A stretch of 64,000 bases of DNA from Candidatus Latescibacterota bacterium (GTDB lineage: Bacteria; Latescibacterota; UBA2968; UBA8231): the NCBI GenBank assembly GCA_965261395.1, contig OZ253462.1, positions 3,520,001-3,584,000 on the forward strand. Reading direction: 5' to 3'. A model generated the notes under the pieces. It did no database searches. It saw nothing but the letters and a program-made list of their open reading frames with translations, and was not told where the DNA came from. Position numbers and translations under genes: made by a program. The first letter of the stretch is position 1. Every line of letters begins with the position of its first letter. Below, one piece after another: positions 34,148 through 64,000 of this stretch.

Positions 34148-34214
34148 GAGAAAGCCTTCTTCCTGTAGGGGGTGACTTAGCTGTGCCTAGACAGTTGAGA
34201 TGGGGTGTAAAAGA

Positions 34215-34264
34215 GGACAAGGTGGGTGAATCGTCCAAACAACAGGCAACCTCCCACCTTGTCC
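34215..34264 (-). terminator. Intrinsic terminator-like hairpin inside the operon
   Basis: Perfect 12-bp inverted repeat GGACAAGGTGGG (34215-34226) / CCCACCTTGTCC (34253-34264), followed by TCTTTT on the minus strand. Confidence 0.65.
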
Positions 34265-34289
34265 ATCTGTCGCAATATGACCCGGAATA

Positions 34290-47151: not shown

Positions 47152-48054
47152 ATGCAACTAAGTCCCGAACAGGTCGCCCAATTCGCGGAGAACGGCTATC
47201 TGCTGCTGCGCGGCGCGCTGACCGACGCCGACCTCGACCCGATCATCGCCGAGTACGAAGAGTACATCGGTCGCCGCGCCGAGGAGTTGTTGGCGGCCGG
47301 CGACATCTCGGCCCTGTATGCGGACGAACCCTTCGACCGCCGCCTCGTCTCGATCTGCCGCGAAGACGACGAGATCTACAGAGAGCTCGACATCATGCGC
47401 TTGCGCGGGCGAGCCTCGTTTGAATTTTTGCGCAATGACCGCCTGCTCGATATGGTCGAAAGCTTGGTCGGGCCGGAGATTACTTGTAGCCCCATCCAGC
47501 ACACCCGCGCCAAACTGCCTGCGGGTGTGACGCCAAGCGGCAGCGACCCGCACGTGGCCCCTTGGCACCAAGACGCCGGCGTTACTTGGGAGGAGGCCGA
47601 CCCGCACTTCATCCTCACGGTGTGGCTGCCGCTGTGCGCGGCGACGCCCGAAAACGGCTGTTTGCAGATCTTGCCGCGAGCACACCGGAACGGGCTGGTG
47701 CAGCACCACATCAAGCAGGGCCTTGGCACGGTGATCATCGACGACGAGATGCCGCAGACTGAGTCGCTTACCTTGCCGATGGACAAAGGCGACGTGCTGC
47801 TGATGGACAAGCAGACGCCGCATCGCTCGACGCCCAATAACGCAGACATGGTGCGCTGGAGCATGGACTTGCGCTATCAGCAGACGGGGACGCCGACCGG
47901 TCGCCCCTTCCATCCCGACTTCGTGGCCCGCAGCCGGTCCAACCCCGCGTCTGAGCTGAGGGACTACGACGAATGGTGTCGGCGGTGGGTTGAGTCGCTA
48001 GAGGCAGTGCAAGGACAGGGGGTTAAGGCGCATCGGTGGGCGGTCGTCCAGTAG
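47152..48054 (+). CDS. Phytanoyl-CoA dioxygenase (PhyH) family Fe/2OG oxygenase
   Basis: PWHQD, ENGCL, PHRS..N, RWSMDLRY; AAGGAG RBS. Confidence 0.92.
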   Translation: MQLSPEQVAQFAENGYLLLRGALTDADLDPIIAEYEEYIGRRAEELLAAGDISALYADEPFDRRLVSICREDDEIYRELDIMRLRGRASFEFLRNDRLLDMVESLVGPEITCSPIQHTRAKLPAGVTPSGSDPHVAPWHQDAGVTWEEADPHFILTVWLPLCAATPENGCLQILPRAHRNGLVQHHIKQGLGTVIIDDEMPQTESLTLPMDKGDVLLMDKQTPHRSTPNNADMVRWSMDLRYQQTGTPTGRPFHPDFVARSRSNPASELRDYDEWCRRWVESLEAVQGQGVKAHRWAVVQ

Positions 48055-48631
48055 CGACGATGCAGCGGAAGGTGAGGTTGAGGCGCAGAGCGCACGGGCG
48101 TCGGGTCTTGGGGACTTGGTGCTGCCAGTAGGTTTGGGTCGGGCCGCGCATGATGAGCAGGGCACCGTGTCCGAGGGGGATTTCAACCGGAGGGTGGTCG
48201 CGGCGCTTGTGTCGCAGGAGGAAGCGCCGCGTCTCGCCCAAACTTAGCGAGGCGATCGTCGGGTTGGCTCCCAACTCTGGCTCGTCGTCGCTGTGCCAGC
48301 CCATGCTGTCGCGGCCGTTGCGGTACTGATTGAGCAGGACGCTGTTGAGGGAACAGTCGGCGGCGGCTTCGATCCGCGTCTTGAGGTCTAGCAGCGGCGC
48401 GGTCCATGGGCGCGGCTCCAGCGCCAGCCCCGAATAGGCGTAGTGGGCCTCCGCGGACCCATGCCACGCCGAGAGACGCGGCGCGGGAAGCTGGCGGCCA
48501 AAGATGACGACGTGGTGCTGTTGCCACTCAATATCAGCCAACAGTTGCCGCATGAATTGGTCGGCCTCGGCAGGGGCCAAAAAGTCGGGGGCGTAGCGCA
48601 GGTCGCCGTCCGGGAGGGGAATGGCCCTCAT
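48023..48631 (-). CDS. alkB: AlkB-family (ALKBH2/3-like) 2OG-Fe(II) dioxygenase
   Basis: PRLSAW, LLNQYRNGRDSMGWHSDDE, IASLSLG, WQHQVPK, RLNLTFR; ATG 48631 overlaps the upstream TGA (ATGA). Confidence 0.9.
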   Translation of the reverse strand: MRAIPLPDGDLRYAPDFLAPAEADQFMRQLLADIEWQQHHVVIFGRQLPAPRLSAWHGSAEAHYAYSGLALEPRPWTAPLLDLKTRIEAAADCSLNSVLLNQYRNGRDSMGWHSDDEPELGANPTIASLSLGETRRFLLRHKRRDHPPVEIPLGHGALLIMRGPTQTYWQHQVPKTRRPCALRLNLTFRCIVATGRPPTDAP

Positions 48632-49527
48632 TCCACTGCAAAGCCGAGGTCGTCTAGCGCTTGGCACAGCGCGGCGCGGGTTGCATCGTCGAATGGGATG
48701 CGGGGTGGGCGGGCAGGGCCTACGGGCAGGCCGCGCATGGTCAACATCTCCTTGACGGCCGCTAGCAGGTCAAAGTGGAACAAGGTGGAGATGACCTCGT
48801 TAGCGCGTGCTTGCAGGGCCATAGCCGGCTGGATGTCGCTGGCTTCAAAGTGTTGCCGCATTTCCACAAACAGCTTGGGCATGATATTGTAGGTCGAGCC
48901 AATGGCTGCGTCGCTGCCGGCGACCATGCCGCCGAGGCAGATTTCGTCAGGGCCGGAGATTAGGTTGAGGCGGTCGCCGCCTAGCTGCACGAGGCGCTGG
49001 AAGAAGTAGAAATTGCTGTCGGTGAATTTGAGGCCGCTGAAGTTGGGCACGGCTTGCATGGCGTCGAGGAACTGTTCGGCCGTAACGTCCTTGGCGGCCG
49101 TTTGGGACAGCCAATACACGTAGAAAGGTAGATCGGTGGCCGCGCCAATAGCTGCGTAGTGGGCAACCGCGGCTTGGAGGTCGTTGGGCTGATCCACCGG
49201 CGCGACCGAAGCCACTGCGTCCGCGCCAGCGTCCGCGGCGTGCCGGGCCAATTCCACTGCATTAGCCGTGCTCGTCGCGCCGACTTGGAAAATCAGCGGT
49301 ACGGCACCAGCGACCGCGGCGATCGTCGCTTCGGCCATGGCCTTGCGCTCGGGTACGCTCATGGCGCTTCCCTCGCCTGTGCCGCCGCAGACGAAGAAGC
49401 CGTGAGAGCCAGCGTCGATCAGGTGCTTGACGAGTGGCTCGACGCGCGCGGGAGCCAAGGCGCTGCCGTCGTCGGTGAACGGGGTGACGAGCGCGGGCCA
49501 GATCCCGCGTGCTAGTTTATCGGCCAT
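48628..49527 (-). CDS. DHDPS/N-acetylneuraminate lyase family aldolase (NanA-like)
   Basis: ALVTPF, GGTGE, YVY, catalytic GLKFT, GPDE, IGSTYN. Confidence 0.85.
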   Translation of the reverse strand: MADKLARGIWPALVTPFTDDGSALAPARVEPLVKHLIDAGSHGFFVCGGTGEGSAMSVPERKAMAEATIAAVAGAVPLIFQVGATSTANAVELARHAADAGADAVASVAPVDQPNDLQAAVAHYAAIGAATDLPFYVYWLSQTAAKDVTAEQFLDAMQAVPNFSGLKFTDSNFYFFQRLVQLGGDRLNLISGPDEICLGGMVAGSDAAIGSTYNIMPKLFVEMRQHFEASDIQPAMALQARANEVISTLFHFDLLAAVKEMLTMRGLPVGPARPPRIPFDDATRAALCQALDDLGFAVE

Positions 49528-49560
49528 AGTGTTTAATCCTCTGAATGAAAATGGGTGGCG

Positions 49561-50691
49561 CTAAACCACTTGGCCGCCGCGAATGGTAGCCACCGGCTCC
49601 CAACAGCCGCCGGGCCGCTCCTCACCCTTGACATCGCGCAGGGGCAGAGCCGATTCGTTCCAGCGCAGCACCGCCAAGTCGGCGCAGGCACCTGGGGCCA
49701 AGGTGCCGACTTCGCCCTTGAGGCCTAACACCTCGGCGGGGCGGGCGGTGGCGCGGGCGAATACATCCGCTTCGGTCATGCCGGCGGCGATGAGTTTGGA
49801 CATCGTGCGGGGCAGATCGTGTTGGGGGCGGCTGTCAACATGGCGGTTGTATTGGTCGGTCGAAACCGTATCGACGAGAAACCCTTGGGCAATAGTGGCC
49901 TCGGCAATGGGAAAGCTGAAGGAGTTCATGCCGTGGCCCAAGTCGAAGAGGACGCCGCGCTGGCGGGCTTGCCATACGTCGTCGGCAATGCGGTCGTCGT
50001 CCATCAGGTTTTCGGGCAGGGCATTGAGTGAGTAAGTCACCACATCGCCGGGGCGCAACAGGGGGAATTGTTCGCGGCGGGGCCAGTCGGGTTTGAGGCG
50101 GGTGCCTACCAGCAGCGGTTTGCCGCTCAATTCCGCCGCCTCCAGCCCAGCGGCCATAATGGGGCGCGGGTCGAGGTCGTCGGCGCAGGCCCCACCGGTG
50201 ACGGTGACGGCAATGCCCCAAATGCTGCGGTCGTCCGCGGCAATGGCGTCGGCGCAGGCTTGGGCATCGGCGTCGGCTAGGTCGTTGAAGCAGCGCACGG
50301 GGTGCGTCTCACCGTGTTTGCACAGGTTGATGGCTAGGAGCACACGGGTGCGCGAGGCTTCGATCACGGTGCGGCGGTAGTCGTCTATGTTCAAAGCCCC
50401 GGCATCGCCTTGGGACATGACGGTGGTGACGCCGCGTGGCAAAAAGTGAAGGTCCGGGTCGATGCCAAAGCGCGATTGGCCGCGAGCCGGATGGGCGTGC
50501 AGATCGACTAGGCCGGGAAGGAGGAGGGCGTCGGGGAAGTCGAGCACGGTGTGGGCCGATCCCTCGACGCCGGCGCCGGAGGCGACAATGCGGTCGCCGC
50601 GGATGGCCACTGCGCCAGGGCCGTCTAGGCCGCTATCTGCGCAGAAGAGGCGCGGGGCGCGCACCAACAGGTCGTAGGTTTGTTTGGGCAC
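49561..50691 (-). CDS. Amidohydrolase/deacetylase family (dihydroorotase-like) protein
   Basis: PGLVDLHAH, GVTT...GDAG, FDLGHG..SFSF, VSTD, PGACADLAV; GTG start at 50691, 4 nt after the A3 stop. Confidence 0.82.
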   Translation of the reverse strand: MPKQTYDLLVRAPRLFCADSGLDGPGAVAIRGDRIVASGAGVEGSAHTVLDFPDALLLPGLVDLHAHPARGQSRFGIDPDLHFLPRGVTTVMSQGDAGALNIDDYRRTVIEASRTRVLLAINLCKHGETHPVRCFNDLADADAQACADAIAADDRSIWGIAVTVTGGACADDLDPRPIMAAGLEAAELSGKPLLVGTRLKPDWPRREQFPLLRPGDVVTYSLNALPENLMDDDRIADDVWQARQRGVLFDLGHGMNSFSFPIAEATIAQGFLVDTVSTDQYNRHVDSRPQHDLPRTMSKLIAAGMTEADVFARATARPAEVLGLKGEVGTLAPGACADLAVLRWNESALPLRDVKGEERPGGCWEPVATIRGGQVV

Positions 50692-50695
50692 AGTG

Positions 50696-53047
50696 TTAGT
50701 AGGCCACGGCGATGGTGCGAAACGCGGTGTCGTCGCCGGCATCGGCACCCAGATTGACGCGCAGGACGTACAGGCCGGGGGCGGCACCCGCTCCATCGGC
50801 GTCGCGGCCATCCCAGGTGAAGAGGCGTTGCGACCCCTCGCTGCCTGGGGTAAGAGCCGCTACTTGGCGTCCGGCCAGATCGAAGATTTTCACCTGCGGC
50901 TCGCGGCCCTCGACTTTGAAGGCGACGAATCGCACCTCTAGCCGGTCGTTGATACCGTCGCCGTTGGGAGTTACGGTCGCAGAGGCCAGTTGCAGATCGC
51001 TGATGAGCTGGCTGTTGCTGGTCAGCTCGGGGAGCATGACGATGTTGGAGCGGCGCTGGGCCGCCTCGACCGCCTGCCACAGGCCCGGTGATTCGCTCGA
51101 TCCTAGGTCGAGGGCGAAGACGGTGGCGTTTTGCAGCAGGCGGGTAGTGAAGCTCACTTGCAACGAGTCGCCCGCGATCACCTGCGGCAGAGCGATGAGC
51201 AGCGAGTCGGCCTGCACGTCCAAGGCGGCCGGAACGACCTGTTCCGCGCCTACCATCACCGAGACGCTCGATAGGTCAACAGGTTCGGGGACGGTGAAAC
51301 GCATTAGGTCGAAACCGCTGTCGAAGCCATCGGTCTCGGGCCAGAGGGTATAGGTGAAGTTCGTGTCTTGGTTGGGAGTGGCCTCGCGGGGGGTGACGCT
51401 GCCGCGCGCGCCTTGAACTAGGGCTTCTTCAAACTCGACGGACACCGAATTGACGGTCGGGGTGACGGTGGGGTCCTCGGTGGAGAGGATCATCTCCAGC
51501 AAGATGAAGCGGCGCGGGCTGGCCGATTTGAAGGTCTCGCCCGAAAACTGGTAGGTATTGCTAAATGCGTTCCAGTCCTCGCCTGTGACCAAGGTCGAGT
51601 CAACAGGCCCTCTGATCACCTTGGGCAAGCTGTTCCACTTCTCCTCGGTGACCAGATCGCCCTTCTTGTCGTAAAAGGTGTACTCCGGGCTGAGCGCATT
51701 GCCCGAGCGAGAGCGCAATTGCAATCGGGTGCCCGGCGGCAGGTCGGCGTCCCAGTGCAGGGCCTTGATGACTTTGGGCCGCCCATCGCCGGCTACCTCG
51801 CCGAGGTTGATAAAGGCCGACTGCAACTCGACTTGGGCCGGATAACCCGGCGAGAATAGTTGTATCTCACCCCACTTGACGACGCCCCATCCCCTGCAGC
51901 TAACTCCGTGCCACAACAGGTAGCGGGCCTTGTGTGGCTCAAACAGGTAGCGCATGTAAAACAGGTTGTCGGCGTTGGGGGCCAGATGGGTGAAGACCTC
52001 TTCGTAATCGACGTTTTCGGGCACTTCGACGAGTGGGGCGGTGCCCGTGGCCGGGGTGCCGTCGGAAAAGAGGAGGGTGTGGCCCGGCCCAGCGCCAGAG
52101 ATGGTGAAACCCAAGGTGCCTTCGTCGGGCTGCATGGAATAGAGGAACATCTCGTCGATAAAGAATGTCGCGCCTAGATCCGCGCGGAACCACGTGCCGC
52201 CTTCGGCCCATCCCGACAGATCACCACGGCAGCCGGTGACGGTATTGTTGGTGTTGAGGTTGGCATCGAAGAGGTTGGGGGTGGAGCCGGTGCCATCGCC
52301 TTCGACGAAATTGCCGCGTAGGCTGGTGCCTATGGCAATGTTGTCGCCGATGCCGATGACCTCGATCTCGGCGAGGGCAGCGTTGGCGTTCTGCTCTTCG
52401 GAGATGATTTGGATGTACTGGATTAACTGGTAGTGGTTGCGTTCTGCGGGCGTTAAATCCAAATCGGGGTCAAACACTAGCGCGCTGTCGCGACCAGCGT
52501 AGCGCAACGGGATGACAATTTCTGATTCGGCGTTGGGGCGCGTGGTGCGGAAGGCCTGGCGGTAGAGGAAGAGGTCTTCGGTGGCCGAGATGCGCACGCC
52601 AGAGGTGGTGAAGACGCGGAATTGGCGGAACGGGCGCGCTCCCTCTTGGTCGGGGAATGTCAGGCGAATCTCGCGGGCTAGGGCCGCACGGCCTAGGTCG
52701 ATGGTGATAAACCAGTCCTCGCGGGCGTCGTCGGGGCTAGGTTGCCAATAGGTCGTTGGATCGCCGTCGATGGCCAGCGGGGCGTCGGCCGGGTTGGAGC
52801 CAGCTTGCCAGAGGCCGCCGGCAACGGCATCGCCTCTAGTGCGGGTCTTGTGGGTGAAGCGATGCGCGTCCTCGATGAGGTTGATGTCCTTGCGGAATTT
52901 GACGAGCGAGAGCTGGCCTTGTTCGCCGACCTGGACCAAGCCGAAGGGCTGTTGCCATTGGGCCCATTTCTCGGCGCTGTCGAAGGAGAGCATTTCAGCC
53001 GCTAGTGGGGCGGCTAGCACGAGGCAGACGATGATTACGCGTTGCAT
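50696..53047 (-). CDS. Type-A cassette protein A3 (secreted; discoidin-like domains + FlgD-Ig/CHU_C-like CTD)
   Basis: Start ATG 53047 behind GGAGG; signal peptide; IDGDPTTYW...IDLG; TPNGDGIND...WDGRD...IAVAY. Confidence 0.85.
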   Translation of the reverse strand: MQRVIIVCLVLAAPLAAEMLSFDSAEKWAQWQQPFGLVQVGEQGQLSLVKFRKDINLIEDAHRFTHKTRTRGDAVAGGLWQAGSNPADAPLAIDGDPTTYWQPSPDDAREDWFITIDLGRAALAREIRLTFPDQEGARPFRQFRVFTTSGVRISATEDLFLYRQAFRTTRPNAESEIVIPLRYAGRDSALVFDPDLDLTPAERNHYQLIQYIQIISEEQNANAALAEIEVIGIGDNIAIGTSLRGNFVEGDGTGSTPNLFDANLNTNNTVTGCRGDLSGWAEGGTWFRADLGATFFIDEMFLYSMQPDEGTLGFTISGAGPGHTLLFSDGTPATGTAPLVEVPENVDYEEVFTHLAPNADNLFYMRYLFEPHKARYLLWHGVSCRGWGVVKWGEIQLFSPGYPAQVELQSAFINLGEVAGDGRPKVIKALHWDADLPPGTRLQLRSRSGNALSPEYTFYDKKGDLVTEEKWNSLPKVIRGPVDSTLVTGEDWNAFSNTYQFSGETFKSASPRRFILLEMILSTEDPTVTPTVNSVSVEFEEALVQGARGSVTPREATPNQDTNFTYTLWPETDGFDSGFDLMRFTVPEPVDLSSVSVMVGAEQVVPAALDVQADSLLIALPQVIAGDSLQVSFTTRLLQNATVFALDLGSSESPGLWQAVEAAQRRSNIVMLPELTSNSQLISDLQLASATVTPNGDGINDRLEVRFVAFKVEGREPQVKIFDLAGRQVAALTPGSEGSQRLFTWDGRDADGAGAAPGLYVLRVNLGADAGDDTAFRTIAVAY

Positions 53048-53057
53048 CGAATCCTCC

Positions 53058-55091
53058 TTAGTAGGCGATACCCAAAGGGCGGTATTGAGGATCGGCAGCA
53101 AATTCCGAGCGCAGATTTAAGGCCGTCAGGTAGAGGCCGGGCGGTAGCCTCTGACCTGTTTCATCGCGGCCGTCCCAGCGCAGGCTCTGCGGGCCCGCGC
53201 TCTGCAAGCCGGCCTCGACGAGGGCCACGCGCCGCCCGTCGAGGCTATAGACCTCGAGGACGACGGGAACGGCTTCGGGCAGGCGGAACAGCGAATAGGC
53301 GATGTGCAGTTCGTCGTTGATGCCGTCGCCGTTGGGCGTAAAGACCGCAGAGGAAAAGGTCAGGTTCTGGATGAAGGCGGTTGTTTGCCCCGTGGTGCCG
53401 AGGACGCGCAGGCTGTTGGTCGAGAGGGCTGCGCCGACATCAGCACCGACTACAGGTTGCGGTAGAACGTCGCGTTCGCTGTCTAGGACCTCGCTCTGGA
53501 AGGTGGTTGCGAATTCAAATATCTCCGTGCCAAAGACAATGCGGATCGGCGGATTGTTGGCGCGGGTGATGCGCTCGGGCAGGTGGATGAGTAGGCCCTC
53601 GGGCTCTTGGGTGATCTCGGCAGGCGCAGTTTCCGTGCGGCTCTCGCCTAGTTGCAGGCTTTTGAGTTCGGTTTGGTGCCCCGTGCGAATGCGCAACAGG
53701 TCGAAGCCGGGTGCGTCAACCGTCTCGAAATCGGCTCGGAGATCATAGACGAATTCTATCGCTTCGCCGAGGGGGACTTGGGTGATCCCGCTGGCGGGCT
53801 GTGGATCGTCTAGGGGAGCCACTTCGCCGCGCACGTTGGCGGCCAACAGCGGGGCGGTTTCGAGCCACAGCGAGTCGAGGCGCACGAAATCGTCGAAGGA
53901 ATCGCTTTCCATGGTGATGAGGAACTGCAAATGGGTGCCGTTGCGCAGGTTGATCGGTTGACCCGATTCGACGAAGGGTGCGGACCAGAAAGTCCAGTTA
54001 TCTGAATCGTAGCCGATGGACGCGCGGATGCCGGGTTTGGGCTGGCGTTCGCTCAGGTCGGATGAGGAGCCGATGCGCACGAAGCGGGTGCGCAGTGCGT
54101 TTTCGTAGTGGTCGCGCGAGACTACGCGCTCCAGCCCGGTATCCATGTACTCGTGATAGACGGCCGGGTCGTCGTCTAGGCCAGTGCGCACCTCGACCTT
54201 GATCTGGGCCGCTGCATCGGGGGTTTCCACTGGGGTCCCATTGACCATGCGGAACTTTGTCGCCTGCCAGAACAGCCGTCCGAAATTCACGGGTTCGCCG
54301 AGGTCGGTTATCTTGGTCTTGTAGATGCTCCGCTGCGGTACTCCTTGGGCAAAGAGTTGGAACTCGCTGATTGAGCCGATGAGGGAGAAGGTGATTTTGC
54401 TGATCTTGGCTTGGGCGTCCTCGTCTAGTATCGAGAGCGTCCGGCGGTAGCGAAAGAAGCGCAGATACTGGCGGTTGAAGTCGAAGCGGATCTGCGGGGT
54501 AAAATTGTTGTCAACATCGGCGATGACGGTGGAGAGTGGGTTGGCATTGCCTTTGAGGACTGGAGGTTCGGGCGCGACTGAGGCGGTCACCTGAAAGGCG
54601 GGGACGAAGTCCGTTTCCAGGGGGGTCCCATCGGAACGAAAGCCCTCACTGGGAGGAATAAAGCCAAAGGTCACCGCTGGCACCGCCACGGCTAAATCCA
54701 TGGTGAAGGTTTCTTTTTCGACGAGGTCGGCCATTGGGGGATTATAGGTGAGAGGGTCGCCGTCAATGAGCCAGGAGCCGTTTTCTGATGGATCGGGCAC
54801 GCCGTTGTTCCACTTCCACATGCGCGGCGTCTCGCCGTCTAGGTAGTCGAAGATGCGGTCGCTGGGATCGCGCCAGAAGGCCCAGTTGTCGATATGGGAA
54901 AAAACCGTCTCGTCCGGCGTGAAGTACGTGGGCTGGATGGCACCGGGGGTGGTTGCGAAATCGACGAAGAGGCGGGTGGTGTCGTTTTCGCTCCAGGCTA
55001 GGCCATTGCCGCCTAGCTGCCAGTGGGCGATCTGGGCGGTGGCGCTTTGCGCTAAAATTAGGATGAACAAGACGATAGTGGCACGGCGCAT
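53058..55091 (-). CDS. Type-B cassette protein B2 (secreted; FlgD-Ig/CHU_C-like CTD)
   Basis: Signal peptide ending ATA; WQLGG; DLGEPVNFGRLFW; FTPNGDGIND; ends LGIAY. Confidence 0.88.
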   Translation of the reverse strand: MRRATIVLFILILAQSATAQIAHWQLGGNGLAWSENDTTRLFVDFATTPGAIQPTYFTPDETVFSHIDNWAFWRDPSDRIFDYLDGETPRMWKWNNGVPDPSENGSWLIDGDPLTYNPPMADLVEKETFTMDLAVAVPAVTFGFIPPSEGFRSDGTPLETDFVPAFQVTASVAPEPPVLKGNANPLSTVIADVDNNFTPQIRFDFNRQYLRFFRYRRTLSILDEDAQAKISKITFSLIGSISEFQLFAQGVPQRSIYKTKITDLGEPVNFGRLFWQATKFRMVNGTPVETPDAAAQIKVEVRTGLDDDPAVYHEYMDTGLERVVSRDHYENALRTRFVRIGSSSDLSERQPKPGIRASIGYDSDNWTFWSAPFVESGQPINLRNGTHLQFLITMESDSFDDFVRLDSLWLETAPLLAANVRGEVAPLDDPQPASGITQVPLGEAIEFVYDLRADFETVDAPGFDLLRIRTGHQTELKSLQLGESRTETAPAEITQEPEGLLIHLPERITRANNPPIRIVFGTEIFEFATTFQSEVLDSERDVLPQPVVGADVGAALSTNSLRVLGTTGQTTAFIQNLTFSSAVFTPNGDGINDELHIAYSLFRLPEAVPVVLEVYSLDGRRVALVEAGLQSAGPQSLRWDGRDETGQRLPPGLYLTALNLRSEFAADPQYRPLGIAY

Positions 55092-55176
55092 GAAGACCCT
55101 CCTTTGGCAAAGCGAAAATTAGAGACATGTGCCAACAATATAATGCGTGGTAAACAATTATCCTATCTGAGGAAGA
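55092..55176 (-). promoter_or_regulatory. AT-rich putative promoter region of cassette B2-A3 (duplicate of 57644-57728)
   Basis: AT-rich spacer upstream of a B gene, ending in an AAAGGAGG RBS; no clear -35/-10 pair identified. Confidence 0.4.
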
Positions 55177-55599
55177 TCAGTACGCCACGGCGATGGTGCG
55201 CAGTACTGTATCATCGCCAGCGTCAGCCCCTAGGTCGATGCGGCAGAGGTAGGTGCCGGGTGGCATGAGGTCGCCTTGGGCAGCGCTTCCGTTCCAGGTG
55301 AAAACGTGAGCCAAGCCGTCGATGGCCAGCGGGGCGTCGGCCTCGTTGGAGCCAGCTTGCCAGAGACCTCCGGCGACGGCATCGCCCTTGGTGCGGGTCT
55401 CGTGGACGAAGAAGTGTGCGTCTTCGACGAGGTTGATATCCTTGCGGAATTTGACGAGCGAGAGTTGGCCCTGTTCGCCGACCTAGACCAAGCCGAAGGG
55501 CTGTTGCCATTGGGCCCATTCCTCGCCGCTGTCAAAGGAGAGCATGTCAGCAGCGAGTGGGACGGCTAGCACGAGGCAGACGATGATTACGCGTTGCAT
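55177..55599 (-). pseudogene. Chimeric type-A pseudogene (A3-like N-terminus fused in frame to A1-like C-terminus; internal TAG)
   Basis: MQRVIIVCL...PFGLV*VGEQ...DAPLAIDG|LAHVFTWNGSAAQGDLMPPGTYLCRIDLGADAGDDTVLRTIAVAY; TAG at 55483-55485 where A3 has CAG. Confidence 0.9.
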
Positions 55600-55609
55600 C
55601 GAATCCTCC

Positions 55610-57643
55610 TTAGTAGGCGATACCCAAAGGGCGGTATTGAGGATCGGCAGCAAATTCCGAGCGCAGATTTAAGGCCGTCAGGTAGAGGCCGGGCGGTAGC
55701 CACTGACCTGTTTCATCGCGGCCGTCCCAGCGCAGGCTCTGCGGGCCTGCGCTCTGCAAGCCGGCCTCGACGAGGGCCACGCGCCGACCATCGAGGCTAT
55801 AGACCTCGAGGACGACGGGAACGGCTTCGGGCAGGCGGAACAGCGAATAGGCGATGTGCAGTTCGTCGTTGATGCCGTCGCCGTTGGGCGTAAAGACCGC
55901 AGAGGAAAAGGTCAGGTTCTGGATGAAGGCGGTTGTTTGCCCCGTGGTGCCAAGGACGCGCAGGCTGTTGGTCGAGAGGGCTGCGCCGACATCAGCACCG
56001 ACTACAGGTTGCGGTAGAACGTCGCGTTCGCTGTCTAGGACCTCGCTCTGGAAGGTGGTTGCGAATTCAAATATCTCCGTGCCAAAGACAATGCGGATCG
56101 GCGGATTGTTGGCGCGGGTGATGCGCTCGGGCAGGTGGATGAGTAGGCCCTCGGGCTCTTGGGTGATCTCGGCAGGCGCAGTTTCCGTGCGGCTCTCGCC
56201 TAGTTGCAGGCTTTTGAGTTCGGTTTGGTGCCCCGTGCGAATGCGCAACAGGTCGAAGCCGGGTGCGTCAACCGTCTCGAAATCGGCTTGGAGATCATAG
56301 ACGAATTCTATCGCTTCGCCGAGGGGGACTTGGGTGATCCCGCTGGCGGGCTGCGGATCGTCTAGGGGAGCCACTTCGCCGCGCACGTTGGCGGCCAACA
56401 GCGGGGCGGTTTCGAGCCACAGCGAATCGAGGCGCACGAAGTCGTCGAAGGAGTCGCTTTCCATGGTGATGAGGAACTGCAAATAGGTGCCGTTGCGCAG
56501 GCTGATAGGTTGGCCTGATTCGACGAAGGGTGCGGACCAGAAGGTCCAGTTGTCTGAATCGTAGCCGATGGACGCGCGGACGCCCGGCTTGGGCTGGCGT
56601 TCGCTCAGGTCGGATGCGGCGGTGATACGCACGAAGCGAGTGCGCAGGGCGTTTTCATAGTGGTCGCGCGAAACTACGCGCTCTAGGCCGGTGTCCATGT
56701 ACTCGTGATAGACGGCCGGGTCGTCGTCTAGGCCGGTGCGCACCTCGATCTTAACTTGGGCCGCCGCGTCGGGAGTTTCCACTGGAGTCCCATTGACCAT
56801 GCGGAATTTTGTCGCCTGCCAGAACAGCCGTCCGAAATTTACGGGTTCGCCGAGGTCGGTTATCTTGGTCTTGTAAATGGCCTGCTGAGGCACACCTTGG
56901 GAGAAGAGCTGAAACTCGCTGATCGAGCCGATGAGAGCAAAGGCGACGTTGCCGCTCTTGGCTTGGGCGTCCTCATCCAGTAGCGAGAGCGTCCGGCGGT
57001 AGCGGAAGAAGCGCAGGTACTGGCGGTTGAAGTCGATGCGGACCTGCGGGGTAAAATTGTTGTCAACATCGGCGATGACGGTGGAGAGTGGATTGACATT
57101 GCCTTCAAGCACCGGGGGTTCGGGTGCGACCGAGGCGGTCACCTGAAAGGCGGGAACGAAGTCCGTTTCCAGTGGGGTGCCGTCGGAACGAAAGCCCTCG
57201 CTGGGCGGAATAAAGCCAAAGGCCACCGCTGGCACCGACACGGCCAAATCCATGGTGAAGGTTTCCTTTTCAATGCGGTCGGCTTTGGGTGGGTTGTAGG
57301 TGGTAGGGTCGCCATCGATGAGCCAGGAGCCGTTTTCCGAAGGGTCGGGTATGCCGTGGTTCCACTTCCACATGCGCGGGGTCTCGCCGTCGAGGTAGTC
57401 GAAAATCCGGTCGCTGGGGTCGCGCCAGAAGGCCCAGTTGTCGATATGGGAAAAAACCGTCTCGTCCGGCGTGAAGTACGTAGGCTGGATGGCACCGGGG
57501 GTGGTTGCGAAATCGACGAAGAGGCGGGTGGTGTCGTTTTCGCTCCAGGCTAGGCCACTGCCGCCTAGCTGCCAGTGGGCGATCTGGGCGGTGGCGCTTT
57601 GCGCTAAACTTAGGATGAACAAGACGATAGTGGCGCGGCGCAT
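55610..57643 (-). CDS. Type-B cassette protein B1 (close paralog of B2)
   Basis: Same length (677 aa) and collinear with B2. Confidence 0.88.
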   Translation of the reverse strand: MRRATIVLFILSLAQSATAQIAHWQLGGSGLAWSENDTTRLFVDFATTPGAIQPTYFTPDETVFSHIDNWAFWRDPSDRIFDYLDGETPRMWKWNHGIPDPSENGSWLIDGDPTTYNPPKADRIEKETFTMDLAVSVPAVAFGFIPPSEGFRSDGTPLETDFVPAFQVTASVAPEPPVLEGNVNPLSTVIADVDNNFTPQVRIDFNRQYLRFFRYRRTLSLLDEDAQAKSGNVAFALIGSISEFQLFSQGVPQQAIYKTKITDLGEPVNFGRLFWQATKFRMVNGTPVETPDAAAQVKIEVRTGLDDDPAVYHEYMDTGLERVVSRDHYENALRTRFVRITAASDLSERQPKPGVRASIGYDSDNWTFWSAPFVESGQPISLRNGTYLQFLITMESDSFDDFVRLDSLWLETAPLLAANVRGEVAPLDDPQPASGITQVPLGEAIEFVYDLQADFETVDAPGFDLLRIRTGHQTELKSLQLGESRTETAPAEITQEPEGLLIHLPERITRANNPPIRIVFGTEIFEFATTFQSEVLDSERDVLPQPVVGADVGAALSTNSLRVLGTTGQTTAFIQNLTFSSAVFTPNGDGINDELHIAYSLFRLPEAVPVVLEVYSLDGRRVALVEAGLQSAGPQSLRWDGRDETGQWLPPGLYLTALNLRSEFAADPQYRPLGIAY

Positions 57644-57728
57644 GAAGGCTTTCCTTTGGCAAAGCGAAAATTAGAGACATGTGCCAATAATATAATATTT
57701 GATAGACAATTATCCTATCTGCGGAAAA
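57644..57728 (-). promoter_or_regulatory. AT-rich putative promoter region upstream of B1
   Basis: Homologous to 55092-55176, with differences concentrated in the central AT tract. Confidence 0.4.
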
Positions 57729-60065
57729 TCAGTACGCCACAGCGATGGCGTGCAGTGCTGTATCGTCGCCGGCGTCAGCTCCTAGGTCAATGCGGCAGAG
57801 GTAGGTGCCGGGTGGCATGAGGTCGCCTTGGGCAGCGCTTCCGTTCCAGGTGAAAACATAGGCTACGCCGTCGATGGCTGGGGCCGCTAGTTCGGCGACC
57901 GGCCTTCCGGCAAGGTCGAAAATGCGCACTTGGGGCGTGCGTTGCTCGACCTTGAAGGCGACGAAGCGGATAACTACTTCGTCGTTGATGCCGTCGCCGT
58001 TGGGAGTGAGTACTGGCGAGGAAATCGAGAGGTCGTCAATGAGCTGGGTAGTGCCGGTCAGAGCGGGGAGCATGACGATATTGGCGCGGCGCGTCAGCGG
58101 CTCGACCGATTGCCACAGGTCTGGATGGCCGCTCGAACCTAAGTCGAGGCCGAAGAGCGTGGCGTTGTGTAGTACGCGGGTGGTGAAGCTGACTTGGACG
58201 GAGTCGGTGGTGATGGCACGGGGCAGGTCGATTTGCAGGGCGTCGGCGCGGATGTCTATGGAAGATGGCTCGATGTGGGTGCCGCCCGCGCGGACTTCGA
58301 CATCGGACGCTTCAGCGGGGAGGGCAAAGCGCAGCAAGTCGAAGCCCGCGTGGGCGGCATCGGCCGCGGACAACAGGGTGTAGGTGAAGCGAGTGTCCTC
58401 GTTGGGCAGGGCGACTCTGGGGGCGATTTGGCCCTGGGCGCCCTGTAACAGCGCGTCCTTGTACTCAAGCGACAGCGCGTCAATTGCGGGTGCCGCCTGT
58501 GGATCGTCGGTCGAGAGGATCATCTCCAACTGCACGAAGCGACGCGGGCTTTGCGACTTGAATGCCTCGCCGGAAAAGGTGTACGCCTTGCTCCACGCAT
58601 CCCAATCCTCGCTGACCACGACGGTGGTGTCGATCCTTCCCCGCAGCACTTTGGGCAGGCTGAGCCATTTCTCTTCAGTGACCGGCTCGCCGATCTTGTC
58701 GTGGAAGGCATAGACCTCGCCCTGGGTGTTGCCCGAGCGCGAGTGCACTTGCAGGCGAGTGCCGGGCGGAATGTCGGCGTCCCAAGAGAGGTGGCTGATG
58801 ACTTTGGCACGCCCATCGCCAGCGGCCGTGCCGAGATCGATAAAGTCCGAATGCATGACGACCTCGGCGGGGTGGCCCGGCGAAAAGAGCATCAGCTCGG
58901 TCCAGCGCGAACCCCATTCCTGGGGGGTGTGGGCGTGCCAGAACAGGTAGCGGACCCTGCGCGGTTGGAACAGATAGCGCAGATAGCGCATGGAGCCGGG
59001 GTCGGGTTGGTCGATGAGGGTAGCAAAGTCAAAGGATTCGGGGATGGGGAGCTGGGAGCTGATGACGCGGGTGCCGTCCGAGTGGAGAAAGTTAAAGCCT
59101 CTCGGAGCGCTGGCCACGCTCCCGACCGTGCCCTCGCGCGGCCTGAGCGCGTAGAGGAAAAGCTCGTCGAGCCAGAATACGGCCCCTAAGTCGATGAAGA
59201 ACCAGGTGCCCTGATCTTCCCAACTGCGGACGCGGCCCTCAAAGCCTACGGGCAGGATGGAGCTGGCGGTGTTCATGTCGCCGTCGAGGATATTTTCGTT
59301 AGAGCGGGCGGTAAGCCCGTTGATGATGCCGCCGCGCTGGTCGTTGCCCAAGCTGACGTTGTCGCCGACGGCGATGACTTCGACCTCGGCTAAGGCACCT
59401 TCAGGCTCTAGGTCTTCGACTGTGAAGTTGATGTACTGGATGAGGCGGTACTGGTTGAACTCTTCCAGATCGACGTTGAGACTAGGGTCGAGGACCTGGG
59501 CGCTGTCCTGGAGGTCGAAGGCGAGGGGGATTGAGATGGTGGTATCCCTGTTAGGTTGAGTCGTCAGATAAACCGGCCGAAAAATAAAGAGGTCGCCGAG
59601 GGCGTCGGAAGTGATGCCGGTGGCGGTGAAGACGGTGAACTGGCGGAAGGGGCGGGCGCCTTCTTGGTCGGGAAAGTGCAGGCGGATCTCTTTGGCCAGC
59701 ACGGCGCGACCGAGGTCAATCTGCACGAACCAGTCGCCGAGCACGTCGTCGGCCGAGGCCTGCCAGAAGGTCGCGCGGTTGCCGTCCATGACCCGTCTGG
59801 CTGCGGCTGGGTTGCTGCCGGCTTCCCAGATCCCGCCCGGCACGTTGGCACCGCGCGAGCGGGTGTGGTGGGTAAAGTCGGGCGCGTCGGCTACGGCGTT
59901 GATATCCTTGCGGAATTTGACCAGCCGCAACTGACCGCGGTCGCCAAACTCGATCAGGCCATAGGGCTTCTTCCAGGTTGACCAGCTAGCGGCGCTGTCG
60001 AAGCGGAATTCTGCGGCGGCGAGCGCGGTTGCCGAACAGAGGACCCAAAGCAGTAGAGGACGCAT
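57729..60065 (-). CDS. Type-A cassette protein A1
   Basis: Signal peptide; collinear with A3 (KFRKDIN, FPDQEGARPFRQF, GTWF..DLGA, SRSGN, LTPNGDGIND, IAVAY). Confidence 0.88.
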   Translation of the reverse strand: MRPLLLWVLCSATALAAAEFRFDSAASWSTWKKPYGLIEFGDRGQLRLVKFRKDINAVADAPDFTHHTRSRGANVPGGIWEAGSNPAAARRVMDGNRATFWQASADDVLGDWFVQIDLGRAVLAKEIRLHFPDQEGARPFRQFTVFTATGITSDALGDLFIFRPVYLTTQPNRDTTISIPLAFDLQDSAQVLDPSLNVDLEEFNQYRLIQYINFTVEDLEPEGALAEVEVIAVGDNVSLGNDQRGGIINGLTARSNENILDGDMNTASSILPVGFEGRVRSWEDQGTWFFIDLGAVFWLDELFLYALRPREGTVGSVASAPRGFNFLHSDGTRVISSQLPIPESFDFATLIDQPDPGSMRYLRYLFQPRRVRYLFWHAHTPQEWGSRWTELMLFSPGHPAEVVMHSDFIDLGTAAGDGRAKVISHLSWDADIPPGTRLQVHSRSGNTQGEVYAFHDKIGEPVTEEKWLSLPKVLRGRIDTTVVVSEDWDAWSKAYTFSGEAFKSQSPRRFVQLEMILSTDDPQAAPAIDALSLEYKDALLQGAQGQIAPRVALPNEDTRFTYTLLSAADAAHAGFDLLRFALPAEASDVEVRAGGTHIEPSSIDIRADALQIDLPRAITTDSVQVSFTTRVLHNATLFGLDLGSSGHPDLWQSVEPLTRRANIVMLPALTGTTQLIDDLSISSPVLTPNGDGINDEVVIRFVAFKVEQRTPQVRIFDLAGRPVAELAAPAIDGVAYVFTWNGSAAQGDLMPPGTYLCRIDLGADAGDDTALHAIAVAY

Positions 60066-60071
60066 TGGCCG

Positions 60072-62081
60072 TTAATAGGCAAGGCCCAAGGCCAATAGCT
60101 GTTTGGCTTGGACGAACTGGGTTTGCAGGGCGATGGAGAGTAGGTAGAGGCCCGGCGGGAGGAGCTGGCCGGTCTCGTCGCGGCCGTCCCAGGTGATCGC
60201 GCGCGGGCCGGAGTCTTGCAGCCCTTGGTCGAGGCGGGCGATGCGGCGACCGTCCAAGGCGTACACTTCCAGTGCCACGGGCACGGGACCGGGGAGGTGG
60301 AAGAGCGAATAACGCATCTGGAGCTGGTCGTGGATGCCGTCGCCATTGGGGGTCAGCACCGGGGTGGACAAAGCGAGCGCTTGGATGAAATCGAGTGTCT
60401 CGTCGCCCGCGCCCAGCACCCGCAGGCTGTTGGTGGAGACCGCCTCGCTGGCGTCGCCGGCTAGGATTGGTTGGGGGAGCGATTCGCCGTCGGCGACAAA
60501 GATCTCGCCGGCAAAGGTGGAGGCGAATTCAAAGACTTCGGCGGCGAAGACCACGCGGATCGGCGCGTTGTTGGTGCCGGTGACGCGCTGGGGCAATTGG
60601 ATCACCAAACCGTCGTCTTCCTCTACTGCGACTGGATTGACCGAGACGAGTGGGGTGCCCATTTCGAGGCGGCGAAAGGCGGTGCGATTGCCGGTGTGGA
60701 TCCTAAGCGCGTCGAAGCCGGGAGCGGTGCTACCGTCGAATACGGCCCGCACCTGATAGACGAATTCGGTCTGTTGGCCCAAGGCGACTTCGGTAAAGCC
60801 GCGCTTGGGCTGCGGGTCGTCGCGTCGAGCCACTTCGGCGAATACCTCAGCGGCCAATAGCGGCGCGGTCTCGATCCACAGCGAGTCAATCCGCATCCAA
60901 GCGTCGAAGTCGCGGCTTTCTAAGGAGAGTTCCACTTGGAGATGCGATCCGCTCCTGAGCCGGATTGGCTGGCCCGATTCGGTAAAGGGCACCGACCAGA
61001 AGGACCAGTTGGCAGAATCGTAGCCGATGGAGGCGCGGATCCCGGGCCGTGGGTCGCGGTTGAGTTGGGCGGTGAGTGTCTCGTATTGCTCGCGCGAGAC
61101 CTCCTTCTCTCGGCCGATGTTGGTGTATTCGTGGTAGGTCGCCGGGCTGTCATCGCGGCCGACGCGGACTTTGGCCTTGAGCCAGACTGGGGCGTCGGGA
61201 TCTGCGACGACCACGCCATCGACCAAGCGCAGCGGCGTGCCTGCCCAGTGCAGGCGGCCAAAATTCACCACTCGGCCCAGATCGACGACTTGGCTGAGGT
61301 ACACTACGCGCTGCGGGATGCCTTGGCCGAAGATCTCGAATCCCCCGATTGAGCCTTTGAGCGCGATGGCTTGGTTGCCTTGGCCTCCGCAGTCGCGGCA
61401 GATGTTGAGCGCTTCCTCGTCGGCCAGCGACAATTGGCGGCGCCAGCGGAAGAAGCGGACGTACTGGCGGGGGATTTCTATCTGAACGGAGGGTTCGAAG
61501 TTGGCACCGACATTGGCGATGGTTTTTTCAAAGAGATCGTTGCCACCCCACTGAACGGCCGGTTCGGTGTCCGTGCCGATCGAGACATCGAAAGCCGGGA
61601 CCGCGTCGAAGGGCAGCGGTGTGCCGTCAGAGCGGAAGCCCTGCGAGGGAGTGAAGAAGCCGAAGCGCACGGCGGGGATCGGCACGGCGGTGTCGAAGGA
61701 GAAGAAAGTGGCTCCGACCGATTCGGACCGGGGGGCGTTGTAAGTCGTGGAATCGCGATCAACTAGGAAAACGCCGCTTTGGGTCGGATCGCCGCCGGCA
61801 CCGCCCCAGCGGTTCCAGAAGCGGGGTTTCTGGCCATCGACATAGCCGAGGTTGTACAAGGGGGGTTCGCGCCAGAACTCCCAGTTTTCCAGCAAGTGAA
61901 TGACGTTTTGATCTGGCTGCAAGTAGAGCGGCTGGATCGCACCGTCGACAAAATCGACAAGGACGTGGAGGGAGTCGCGCTGATCCCACGCCATGCCACT
62001 GCCGCCCAGTTGCCACTTTGCTACTTGAGCGTGGCTGGGTGCGACGGCGAGGATTAGCATCAAAGGCCAAGCACTGCGCAT
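60072..62081 (-). CDS. Type-B cassette protein B0
   Basis: Start moved to ATG 62081 (MRSAWPLML..., signal peptide ending SHA); collinear with B1/B2; ends LGLAY. Confidence 0.85.
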   Translation of the reverse strand: MRSAWPLMLILAVAPSHAQVAKWQLGGSGMAWDQRDSLHVLVDFVDGAIQPLYLQPDQNVIHLLENWEFWREPPLYNLGYVDGQKPRFWNRWGGAGGDPTQSGVFLVDRDSTTYNAPRSESVGATFFSFDTAVPIPAVRFGFFTPSQGFRSDGTPLPFDAVPAFDVSIGTDTEPAVQWGGNDLFEKTIANVGANFEPSVQIEIPRQYVRFFRWRRQLSLADEEALNICRDCGGQGNQAIALKGSIGGFEIFGQGIPQRVVYLSQVVDLGRVVNFGRLHWAGTPLRLVDGVVVADPDAPVWLKAKVRVGRDDSPATYHEYTNIGREKEVSREQYETLTAQLNRDPRPGIRASIGYDSANWSFWSVPFTESGQPIRLRSGSHLQVELSLESRDFDAWMRIDSLWIETAPLLAAEVFAEVARRDDPQPKRGFTEVALGQQTEFVYQVRAVFDGSTAPGFDALRIHTGNRTAFRRLEMGTPLVSVNPVAVEEDDGLVIQLPQRVTGTNNAPIRVVFAAEVFEFASTFAGEIFVADGESLPQPILAGDASEAVSTNSLRVLGAGDETLDFIQALALSTPVLTPNGDGIHDQLQMRYSLFHLPGPVPVALEVYALDGRRIARLDQGLQDSGPRAITWDGRDETGQLLPPGLYLLSIALQTQFVQAKQLLALGLAY

Positions 62082-62179
62082 CGGGCACCGCATCTCCGCT
62101 GAGGTAACATGCTGCTGGGAAGATAATGCAAAAAGAGCCATGCGCGGAATTAAATAATCACCGCTATGGCTAGGAACTC

Positions 62180-64000
62180 CTAATAGGCGACGGCGATGGT
62201 GCGCAGCATCGTATCGTCACCGGCGTCGGCACCGAGATCGACGCGCAGGACGTAGATGCCGGGGGCCGCGTTCGCTCCGTTGGCGTCGCGGCCATCCCAA
62301 GTGAAGAGGCGGTGCAATCCCTCGGTACTTGGGGCGAGGACGGCTACTTGGTGCCCGGCGAGGTCGAAGACTTCCACTTGCGGCTCGCGGCCTTCGGCTT
62401 TAAGGACGACGAACCGCACCTCTAGCCGGTCGTTGATGCCGTCGCCGTTGGGCGTGAGTGTCGGCGAGGAGACGAAGAAGTCGCTGATGAGCTGGCTGCT
62501 ACTGGTTAGTTCGGGCAGCATGACGATATTGGCACGGCGTGCGGCCGGTTCGACCGACTGCCAACGGCCCGGATGCGTGCTGGAGCCTAAGTCCAACGCG
62601 AAGAGGGTGGCGTTGCGCACCAAGTGGGTGGTAAAGTGGACGCGGACCGAATCGTCTCGGATCGGATCGGGTAAGGCGATGAGCAGGGAGTCTCCGCGCA
62701 GGGAGGTCGATGCCGGCGAGACGGTTTCTGTGCCCTTCTCCACGCTCACGCTGTGCAGATTGAGCGGACCCGGCAGGTCGAAGCGCATCAGGTCGAAGCC
62801 GACGTCATCAGGGCTGGCGCTGGGCAGTAGGGTATAAGTGAAGGAAGTCTCCTCATTGGGGAGGGCACTGCGCGGCTCGACGCGGCCACGGGCACTCTGG
62901 AGCAGCGCGTCGTCGAATTCGATCGACAGCGCGTTGACTGCGGGCGCGACTTCGGGGCGGTCGGTAGCGAGAATCAGCTCCAGTTGCGCGAAGCGACGCG
63001 GACTTTGCGACTTAAAGGTTTCGCCGGAAAATTGGTACACATTGCTCCAAGCGTCCCAGTCCTCGCCGACGACCAGCAAGGTATCGATAGGACCGCGCAG
63101 CACCTTGGGCGAGCTATTCCATTTTTCTTCGGTGATTGCTTCGCCGATCTTATTGTGAAACGTATAGACCGGTGCCAGCGCGTTACCCGAACGAGAGCGC
63201 AGTTGCATCCTAGCCCCTATGGGCAGATCGGCGTCCCAGTGCAGGGCCTTGATGACTTTGGGCCGCCCGTCGCCGGTTTCCTCACCGAGGTCAATAAAGC
63301 CGGAGCGCAGCGAGACTTGGGCGGGATAGCCCGGCGAGAACAGCATAAATTCGCCCCATTTGGATTCGAGCCAATCGCGGTCGGTCAGGCCGTGCCAGAA
63401 CATATAGCGCATCCTGCGCGGCCTGAATTTGTAGCGTATGCGGTAGAGGCCATCCGCCTTGGGGTTGACGTGCGTGAGCAGTTCGCCGTAGTCGAGCGGC
63501 GCAGGTACGGGTAGGGAAGTGCCCACGCTGAGCGAGCCGTCCGAGACTAGGATGCTGTGACCTGGGCCAGCCGAGCCGCGGTGATAGCCCGCAGTGCCCT
63601 CAAAAGGTTGGAGCACGTAGAGGAACAGTTCATCGACGAAGAACACAGCGCCTAGATCGACGTAAAACCAAGTGCCTGCTTTCTCCCAGCCTTGGTCGCC
63701 GCGGCCGGAGGTGATGAGATTGGTGGTGTTGATATCGGCGTCGAAGAGGTTGCCCGGGACGGCGGCTACCGTGCCGTTGAGGAAGGTGCCGCGCCCGGCG
63801 GTGCCGATGCTGATATTGTCGCCCACAGTGAGCACTTCGACTTCGCCCAGCGCCGCATCTAGGCTTTGTTCTTCGACGATGATACTGATGTACTGAATCA
63901 CTTGGTAGTGGTTTTCAAAGGTGCGATCAATGGCCATAGCTGGATCGACCGTCAGGAGGGTGTCGGCGGCCGGATACTCGAGGGGAATGGTCAGGGAAGT
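62180..64000 (-). CDS. Type-A cassette protein A0 (5'-partial, continues beyond the right edge)
   Basis: Frame is open to the window end (TSLTIPLEYPAADTLL...); collinear with A1/A3; ends IAVAY. Confidence 0.88.
   Translation of the reverse strand, partial: TSLTIPLEYPAADTLLTVDPAMAIDRTFENHYQVIQYISIIVEEQSLDAALGEVEVLTVGDNISIGTAGRGTFLNGTVAAVPGNLFDADINTTNLITSGRGDQGWEKAGTWFYVDLGAVFFVDELFLYVLQPFEGTAGYHRGSAGPGHSILVSDGSLSVGTSLPVPAPLDYGELLTHVNPKADGLYRIRYKFRPRRMRYMFWHGLTDRDWLESKWGEFMLFSPGYPAQVSLRSGFIDLGEETGDGRPKVIKALHWDADLPIGARMQLRSRSGNALAPVYTFHNKIGEAITEEKWNSSPKVLRGPIDTLLVVGEDWDAWSNVYQFSGETFKSQSPRRFAQLELILATDRPEVAPAVNALSIEFDDALLQSARGRVEPRSALPNEETSFTYTLLPSASPDDVGFDLMRFDLPGPLNLHSVSVEKGTETVSPASTSLRGDSLLIALPDPIRDDSVRVHFTTHLVRNATLFALDLGSSTHPGRWQSVEPAARRANIVMLPELTSSSQLISDFFVSSPTLTPNGDGINDRLEVRFVVLKAEGREPQVEVFDLAGHQVAVLAPSTEGLHRLFTWDGRDANGANAAPGIYVLRVDLGADAGDDTMLRTIAVAY

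Follow-up and report, generated by a model that had tools for sequence, protein, structure and literature searches.

A tandem array in the genome of a Candidatus Latescibacterota bacterium (assembly GCA_965261395.1, contig OZ253462.1) raises the question of what is gained when two kinds of apparently secreted protein, here called A and B, are encoded again and again as adjacent gene pairs. The array occupies positions 50,696 to 64,000 of the window, by which we mean the whole 64,000-nucleotide stretch that was analysed (contig positions 3,520,001 to 3,584,000). The answer we favour, at a probability of about 0.55, is as follows: A and B would be co-expressed, non-catalytic surface glycan-binding proteins, exported by a type IX secretion system (T9SS) and analogous to SusE and SusF. 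A preliminary description of this DNA had instead read each cassette as an obligate heterodimer, in which A and B bind one another specifically to form a two-chain surface receptor with cognate pairs. We regard that proposal as rather unlikely, and the evidence that bears on the choice is set out below.

Organisation of the cassette array

All seven genes lie on the minus strand, in the order A0, B0-A1, B1-A(remnant), B2-A3. D3 denotes the central module of both proteins, Ig the immunoglobulin fold and CTD the C-terminal domain. In transcription order the features are:

62180-64000, minus: A0, an A gene of which the window includes the 3' 606 codons, its 5' end lying beyond
62082-62179, minus: A0-B0 spacer, 98 nt, AT-rich; a promoter is presumed here
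60072-62081, minus: B0, 669 aa; putative signal peptide, discoidin/CBM32-like module, D3, Ig-like domain, T9SS-type CTD
57729-60065, minus: A1, 778 aa; starts 6 nt past the B0 stop
57644-57728, minus: A1-B1 spacer, 85 nt, AT-rich
55610-57643, minus: B1, 677 aa, intact
55180-55598, minus: A remnant (pseudogene); starts 11 nt past the B1 stop
55092-55179, minus: remnant-B2 spacer, 88 nt, AT-rich; a copy of the A1-B1 spacer
53058-55091, minus: B2, 677 aa
50696-53047, minus: A3, 783 aa; starts 10 nt past the B2 stop
52765-55316: duplication copy 1 (approximate ends)
55317-57868: duplication copy 2 (approximate ends)

The Met chosen as the B0 start is the one aligned to the starts of the other B genes. 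These coordinates bear out the gene order of the preliminary description, with its tight B-to-A spacing (6 to 11 nt from stop to start) and an AT-rich spacer of 85 to 98 nt ahead of each B. A0, which had been taken to stand without a partner, does have one: the full gene runs from 3582183 to 3584504 in genome coordinates, and its own B lies just past the window edge at 3584530-3586680.

The gene between B1 and B2, earlier called a chimera, proved to be a broken A remnant at the junction of a tandem duplication. A direct repeat with a period of 2,552 nt spans B1 and B2, its unit being made up of the last ~50 codons of A1, the spacer, a B gene and the first ~93 codons of A3. Because the junction of the two copies falls there, the remnant joins the 5' end of A3 to the 3' end of A1 (A3-like codons 1 to ~93, then A1-like codons from ~728 to the end), and it holds an in-frame TAG. 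B1 and B2 are 95% identical, with a ratio of nonsynonymous to synonymous substitution rates (dN/dS) of 0.14 at a dS of 0.18. Their dS is uneven, falling from 0.30 over the first 420 codons to 0.026 over the final 257, at a dN/dS of 0.11-0.14 throughout. The duplication therefore has some age; homogenisation has apparently affected its 3' part, and constraint seems to act on both B copies. At the orthologous locus of three sister species two B genes likewise lie between the A1 and A3 orthologs, with a shorter repeat that leaves only ~80-110 nt of the A 3' end between them. A fourth species has a single B at this locus, and the spacing in three others suggests a single B there as well.

Each cassette would form a small operon, with a promoter probably in the AT-rich spacer ahead of B and with A translated immediately behind B. 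An AGGAGG overlaps the B stop ahead of the remnant and ahead of A3; no obvious motif of this type precedes A1. A scan of positions 50000-64000 returned no sigma-70 promoter (0 sites, 2.3 expected), a consensus that may not be that of this phylum, and 12 terminator-like sites where 11.6 were expected. By eye, the regions upstream of 13 closely related B genes (defined below) have only AT-rich, TATA-like stretches in common. Two metatranscriptome runs matched little of the stretch (shares of 0.08 and 0.06), with contigs that are 90-99% alike, and hence from a relative; they cover parts of A3, B2 and A1, and lack of cover elsewhere carries no meaning. One contig spans A1, the spacer and B1 (57329-58773), and another spans the B2/A3 junction (52691-53113). 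For both, strand, level and single transcript are not readable from contigs, and DNA carry-over is possible.

Domain architecture and the predicted route to the surface

The two proteins share one architecture, as first described: a signal-peptide-like N-terminus, one or more discoidin-like modules (the heads), the central module D3, an Ig-like domain and, with the motif TPNGDGIxD and a final AY, the C-terminal domain. The further claim that they are distinct families did not hold. BLASTP aligns ~400 C-terminal residues of A with B (identity 24-29%, E 1e-21 to 1e-27), and hhalign gives probabilities between A and B of 99.3 for D3, 99.3 for the Ig-like domain and 100 for the CTD. The N-terminal module of B is related to both A heads (97.1 with D1, 96.7 with D2), which are related to each other (98.7); D3 has no detectable relation to D1 or D2 (probability <3). 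Because of these profile-profile and BLASTP homologies B can be written as head-D3-Ig-CTD and A as head-head-D3-Ig-CTD, and judged by sequence the two are paralogs.

For A1 a model was obtained with a mean predicted local distance difference test (pLDDT) of 90.1 and a predicted template-modelling score (pTM) of 0.77 from a 47-row alignment. Its residues divide into putative signal peptide (1-16), N-segment (18-51), D1 (52-233), D2 (234-397), D3 (398-540), Ig-like domain (541-672) and CTD (673-778). In this model D1 has a CBM32 fold (4a42_B, Z 17.0, root-mean-square deviation (rmsd) 1.9 A over 125/126 residues; 2v72, Z 16.0) and D2 an F-lectin/CBM47-like fold (fucose-binding module 2j22, Z 13.6; F-lectin/CBM47 matches, Z 13.6-14.7). 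Foldseek matched the model to tandem discoidin pairs, including neuropilin b1b2 and ZmpB CBM32-1/2, and the A profile matches the F-lectin FBP32 with an E value of 1.3e-8. The Ig-like domain of B0 matches pilin-type domains at Z ~9, and precomputed PF00754 or PF22633 matches are present in some homologs.

D3 is modelled in A1 as an all-beta module of ~140 residues between sandwich domains. Pfam searched at E values up to 10 returned no family for D3+Ig of A1, for D3+Ig of B0 or for the N-terminal module of B0, and the ESM Atlas returned only hypothetical clusters for A1 residues 398-675. The preliminary description had left room for assignment to a known enzyme family; none was assigned, and no catalytic fold or family was found for A and B in Pfam, NCBIfam or the fold searches, the whole-model runs being dominated by CBM32 and Ig/CTD domains so that D3 was barely tested. 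Among paralogs the heads diverge most, with mean identities of 47-52% against 65% for D3 in A, and of 46% against 56% in B. Divergent heads on a common scaffold would fit a repertoire of specificities.

The N-termini of A1, A3, B0, B1 and B2 show by eye a hydrophobic segment followed by an Ala-rich stretch of small residues, and the A1 model has a helix at residues 2-15. At the other end of the protein, either CHU_C or FlgD_ig exceeds its Pfam cut-off in all four proteins scanned. With a cut-off of 27 bits for both, CHU_C scored 30.3 in A1 and 28.6 in A3, and fell below in B2 (25.0) and B0 (17.6); FlgD_ig scored 34.8 in B2, 31.9 in B0 and 29.1 in A3. As modelled in B0 (residues 562-669), the CTD bears the Ig-like fold of known T9SS CTDs, with matches to the PorU CTD (6za2_B, Z 11.8, rmsd 2.5 A over 99 residues), to PorZ (5m11, Z 8.5) and to the mirolase CTD (8qb1, Z 8.3, 80/88).

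The genome was searched for the T9SS parts PorU, SprA, PorV, GldM and PorP. PorU is present (NF033707, 618 bits, cut-off 420), as is SprA_N (78 bits, cut-off 27) in an open frame of 2,164 codons, and a PorV-like gene adjoins PorU (150 bits, below the cut-off of 250). The same CTD occurs in 184 open reading frames (ORFs) of the genome. Export of A and B by the T9SS is likely on this evidence. T9SS cargo with a C-terminal sorting domain (PMC9143113) includes type A, such as Porphyromonas gingivalis cargo and the CTDs of PorU and PorZ, and type B, such as SprB-like proteins, anchored via PorP-like proteins. A and B resemble such cargo in having a signal-peptide-like N-terminus and an Ig-like CTD of ~100 residues. 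They differ from it in belonging to Latescibacterota, not Bacteroidota, in a tail that ends in AY and mixes CHU_C with FlgD_ig features, and in coming as B-A gene pairs. No gene besides A and B is conserved next to the pairs at 10 loci, hence no recurrent PorP/SprF partner.

A 271-aa WD40 beta-propeller protein encoded at 46174-46989 (minus strand) carries the same FlgD_ig-type tail, which is therefore found on unrelated passenger domains also.

Pairing within the genome and across the phylum

All ORFs of at least 150 codons were searched with pieces of A1 and B0. The superfamily defined by the D3/Ig core numbers 135 ORFs (306.6 kb, 4.7% of the 6.5-Mb genome, which is a single contig of 6.55 Mb), of which 55 are A-like, with A-type heads, and 80 are B-like. 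Directly upstream of the A-like ORFs (same strand, <300 nt) is a B-like ORF in 25 of 55 cases, an A-like ORF in 3 and no family member in 27. Clusters that include A are mostly BA (14), followed by BBA (3) and BAB (2), with one each of BAA, BABAB, BBAABBA, ABA, AB and AA; those of B alone are BB (3), BBB (1) and BBBB (1). Single genes are 33 B and 24 A.

The close clade of the window was delimited at A_N scores of at least 280 bits (11 A) and B_N scores of at least 140 bits (13 B). Here 10 of the 11 A genes stand directly behind a B, and the remaining one stands behind an A that itself follows a B. Conversely, an A or the remnant comes next after 11 of the 13 B genes, and two, at 929861 (solitary) and 2297299, have no A downstream. 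The B-A adjacency that the preliminary description proposed to check thus holds in the close clade, where 11/11 A stand behind a B or a B-headed A, and fails in the superfamily, where 27/55 A-like ORFs lack an upstream member. In the tree of the 55 A-like proteins, membership of a B-headed array requires 6 changes, against 18.7 in shuffles (0/500 as low). The clade of the window is paired in 15/15 cases, and two other clades, with 9 and 15 members, consist almost wholly of solitary genes.

Loci elsewhere were found with a 12-row alignment in species-representative genomes. We recovered 64, with titles nearly all of Latescibacterota and a few from metagenome-assembled genomes labelled Gemmatimonadota, Planctomycetota, Ignavibacteriaceae or Dehalococcoidia. 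Upstream of the 23 close A ORFs among them was a clear B in 13 cases, a weaker or partial B in 4, an A in 6 (B-A-A-A arrays) and in no case nothing. For 38 distant A-like ORFs the upstream position held nothing (20), a weak B-like ORF (8), an A (3), a B (2) or the contig end (5). Since a close A never occurs without an upstream B-headed array and B is sometimes alone, A most simply depends on a promoter in front of B; lack of a promoter of its own may be all that keeps A strictly behind B in the close clade.

Congruence between A and B trees, which the preliminary description had called for, was found. In a quick search under LG+G4 with all 25 pairs, the A tree and the tree of the partner Bs had 12/22 splits in common (label shuffles, 2,000 in all, gave 2 or fewer), and patristic distances were correlated with a Mantel r of 0.96 (0/2,000 shuffles). 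By these trees A-B pairs are shown to have been duplicated and kept as units. Contact between the two proteins is not shown by congruence, because en-bloc duplication alone would produce it.

The obligate heterodimer reading draws on the short spacing, which suggests coupled translation, on the retention of pairs as units over deep divergence, on the absence of any close A away from a B-headed array (11/11 here, 23/23 in other genomes) and on D3, which as the most conserved module of both proteins could be an interface. Against it stand the unequal arrays (B-A-A, B-A-A-A, B-B-A, BBAABBA), the sister species that keep two B and one A at the window locus, the two close B genes with no A behind them and the A-like clades that are solitary as a whole. 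Variable stoichiometry of this kind would fit cooperation better than a fixed dimer. Furthermore, B1 appears constrained though only a dead A follows it (dN/dS 0.14 against B2 at dS 0.18), which argues against a strict cognate 1:1 rule. A complex prediction for A1 17-545 with B0 22-420, made from their own alignments, without controls and with the Ig-like domain and CTD excluded, gave a score of 0.01 (mark 0.32), which weighs neither for binding nor against it.

In an elaborated form of the heterodimer, the array would encode cognate two-chain receptors in which D3 modules pair and heads form composite sites, a combinatorial set of 25 or more pairs per genome renewed by unequal recombination. 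We consider this unlikely. If true, such receptors would let the reportedly sponge-associated Latescibacterota recognise glycans of host or prey.

Several further members of the superfamily were noted. The largest arrays are the seven-gene BBAABBA (5173632-5189339, minus strand) and a run of four B-like genes (5457788-5466757, plus strand). The closest paralogs of B0-A1 are a pair at 3879256-3883754 (minus strand, genome coordinates; A 71% and B 67% identical), in which a TGA lies near the 5' end of A and the B match crosses a TAG upstream of the longest ORF; the pair could be decaying, or translation could start further downstream. Two near-identical A-like genes of the solitary clade (2299410-2301959 and 5374984-5377314) have branch lengths of 0.022 and 0.025, which points to a very recent dispersed duplication; one of the copies lies directly upstream of a B gene of the close clade.

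Glycan binding and its alternatives

Under the glycan-binding reading that we favour, A and B would be strings of non-catalytic beta-sandwich modules, with one head in B and two in A, followed in both by D3, an Ig-like stalk and the T9SS-type CTD. They would leave the cytoplasm by the Sec pathway through the N-terminal signal peptide, and the T9SS would recognise the CTD by way of the SprA translocon, a PorV-like shuttle and the PorU sortase, with display on the cell surface or release to follow. The ligands of the divergent heads would be glycans, from the host or from food polymers. A and B, expressed together and carrying n and n+1 modules, would cooperate, for which a tight 1:1 complex is not required, and the array would grow and change by unequal tandem duplication, with the heads diverging most to give a repertoire of specificities.

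Several observations weigh against this reading. The curated CTD models were not reached: NCBIfam TIGR04131 (type B) scored 18.6, 15.3 and 19.4 bits (cut-off 35), and TIGR04183 (type A) 17.1 bits against 23. By fold and by CHU_C or FlgD_ig the tail resembles those of T9SS cargo, and the specific type-B label of the preliminary description is weak. GldM (TIGR03517) and PorP (TIGR03519) had no match in the genome, control genomes being equally silent. The discoidin models of Pfam fell short as well, PF00754 (F5_F8_type_C) with 19.1 bits in A1 and 23.0 in A3 against a gathering cut-off of 28.2, and PF22633 (F5_F8_type_C_2) with 25.0 and 26.3 against 27.8. F-type lectins bind fucose through a His/Arg motif; the His in the C-T-H-T of FBP32, which we take to belong to the fucose-binding site, has no His counterpart in the A profile alignment, and that alignment runs only to chain residue 219, short of the Arg region. 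For B0 the model is weaker than for A1 (mean pLDDT 65.6, N-terminal third poor), and the CBM32 match of the B0 head (Z 9.7) falls on a low-confidence part of it. D3, the most conserved module, is without an assigned function. Finally, in the flanks of 10 close loci no family recurs in more than three, and glycoside hydrolases or transporters do not flank the pairs; the link to SusE/F-like degradation is therefore only an analogy.

The susE and susF genes are adjacent. As presented in PMC4173775, SusE of Bacteroides thetaiotaomicron has two tandem carbohydrate-binding modules and SusF three, and the two are partially homologous surface binders with distinct preferences. A and B are similar in being partially homologous, non-catalytic and multi-domain, with n versus n+1 modules. 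Unlike the SusE and SusF lipoproteins, they have no lipobox by eye and carry a T9SS-type tail instead, their folds are other ones, and dozens of pairs occur per genome. SusE and SusF also belong to a polysaccharide utilisation locus with SusC/D/G, whereas no recurrent transporter or glycosidase lies by A/B at the 10 loci.

At the level of single modules, A D1 has the fold of CBM32/F5-8 type C modules such as CpGH89 CBM32-6 (4a42) and NanJ (2v72). In contrast to glycosidase CBM32 modules, those of A and B are not joined to a catalytic domain and stay below the Pfam gathering cut-off. A D2 has the fold and framework motifs of F-type lectins/CBM47 (FBP32 3cqo, SpX-3 2j22, Anguilla 1k12), and A has the tandem two-module arrangement of FBP32, from which it differs at the His noted above.

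Discoidin folds also bind protein and lipid, so the same modules might serve a surface coat or adhesin that binds proteins or cells, not glycans, with possible roles in host-matrix or cell-cell adhesion or in an S-layer-like coat. The matches to neuropilin b1b2, to factor V C domains and to ubiquitin-ligase DOC domains point this way, as do matches of a generic kind to Ig domains of S-layers and pilins, the very large size of the family and the failure to reach curated CBM-type sequence models. We nonetheless think it improbable: glycosidase carbohydrate-binding modules give the fold matches that rank highest and are most complete (Z 14-17), we saw neither a repeat nor a feature that would form a lattice, and the S-layer matches are generic multi-Ig ones with a TM score of 0.13. 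That A and B are enzymes or toxins, with D3 as a catalytic or cytotoxic part delivered by the T9SS, is highly improbable: D3+Ig, with neither a Pfam family nor an annotated ESM Atlas cluster, has a function that annotation does not exclude, but D3 is a small all-beta module flanked by sandwich domains and no catalytic fold is among the top matches of either model, weak as this last point is where whole-model searches barely reach D3.

Distribution and neighbouring genes

Of 151 genomes sampled from the phylum, 89 matched the A profile at E values up to 1e-40. All 63 sampled genomes of the organism's own family were matched, as were genomes in several other families, and two families gave none (0/30 and 0/19). 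A1 alone at 1e-50 matched 24/24 genomes of the genus and 0/16 in three other families. In a library of 1.84 billion representatives there were 234 at E values up to 1e-30 and 1,568 at up to 1e-3. Among the matches listed, the source-named homologs are called 'hypothetical protein', save one partial sequence named by a gliding-motility C-terminal domain.

The literature searches found no paper joining Latescibacteria and T9SS, and only unrelated papers when discoidin proteins of sponge symbionts were sought. A paper on Latescibacterota of sponges (PMC12993501), supplements aside, does not contain discoidin, type IX, T9SS, gliding, FlgD or any word beginning with adhes. Against the literature found, the family and its unassigned D3 module appear undescribed, as do the family's size and confinement to Latescibacterota and the clade-wide B-A(n) operon; the CBM32 and F-lectin folds, the Ig stalk and the T9SS-type tail are of known kinds. 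A family that takes up 4.7% of a 6.5-Mb genome and is present in every sampled genome of its taxonomic family would, if made up of surface glycan binders, probably be a main interface of an uncultured phylum with its substrates or host, and T9SS cargo biology would then reach beyond Bacteroidota. The paired organisation offers a clean test case for co-inherited paralog pairs as complexes versus cooperating independent binders.

Elsewhere in the window, positions 32000-36194 (minus strand) hold another same-strand pair, its genes 143 nt apart. The first encodes 634 aa with a strong FlgD_ig tail (59 bits), and the second 715 aa with F5/8 type C and CHU_C; the core of the 715-aa protein has homology to both A and B, at 24-28% identity (E 1e-13 to 1e-21). 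Two adjacent large paralogs of 1,060 and 976 aa, 32% identical over ~630 residues and with no Pfam match, are encoded at 20854-29298 (minus strand), adjoined by DUF5683 and DUF4159 genes. Directly downstream of the array, at 47152-50811, lie genes for a PhyH dioxygenase, a 2OG-Fe(II) oxygenase, a DHDPS-family protein and an amidohydrolase.

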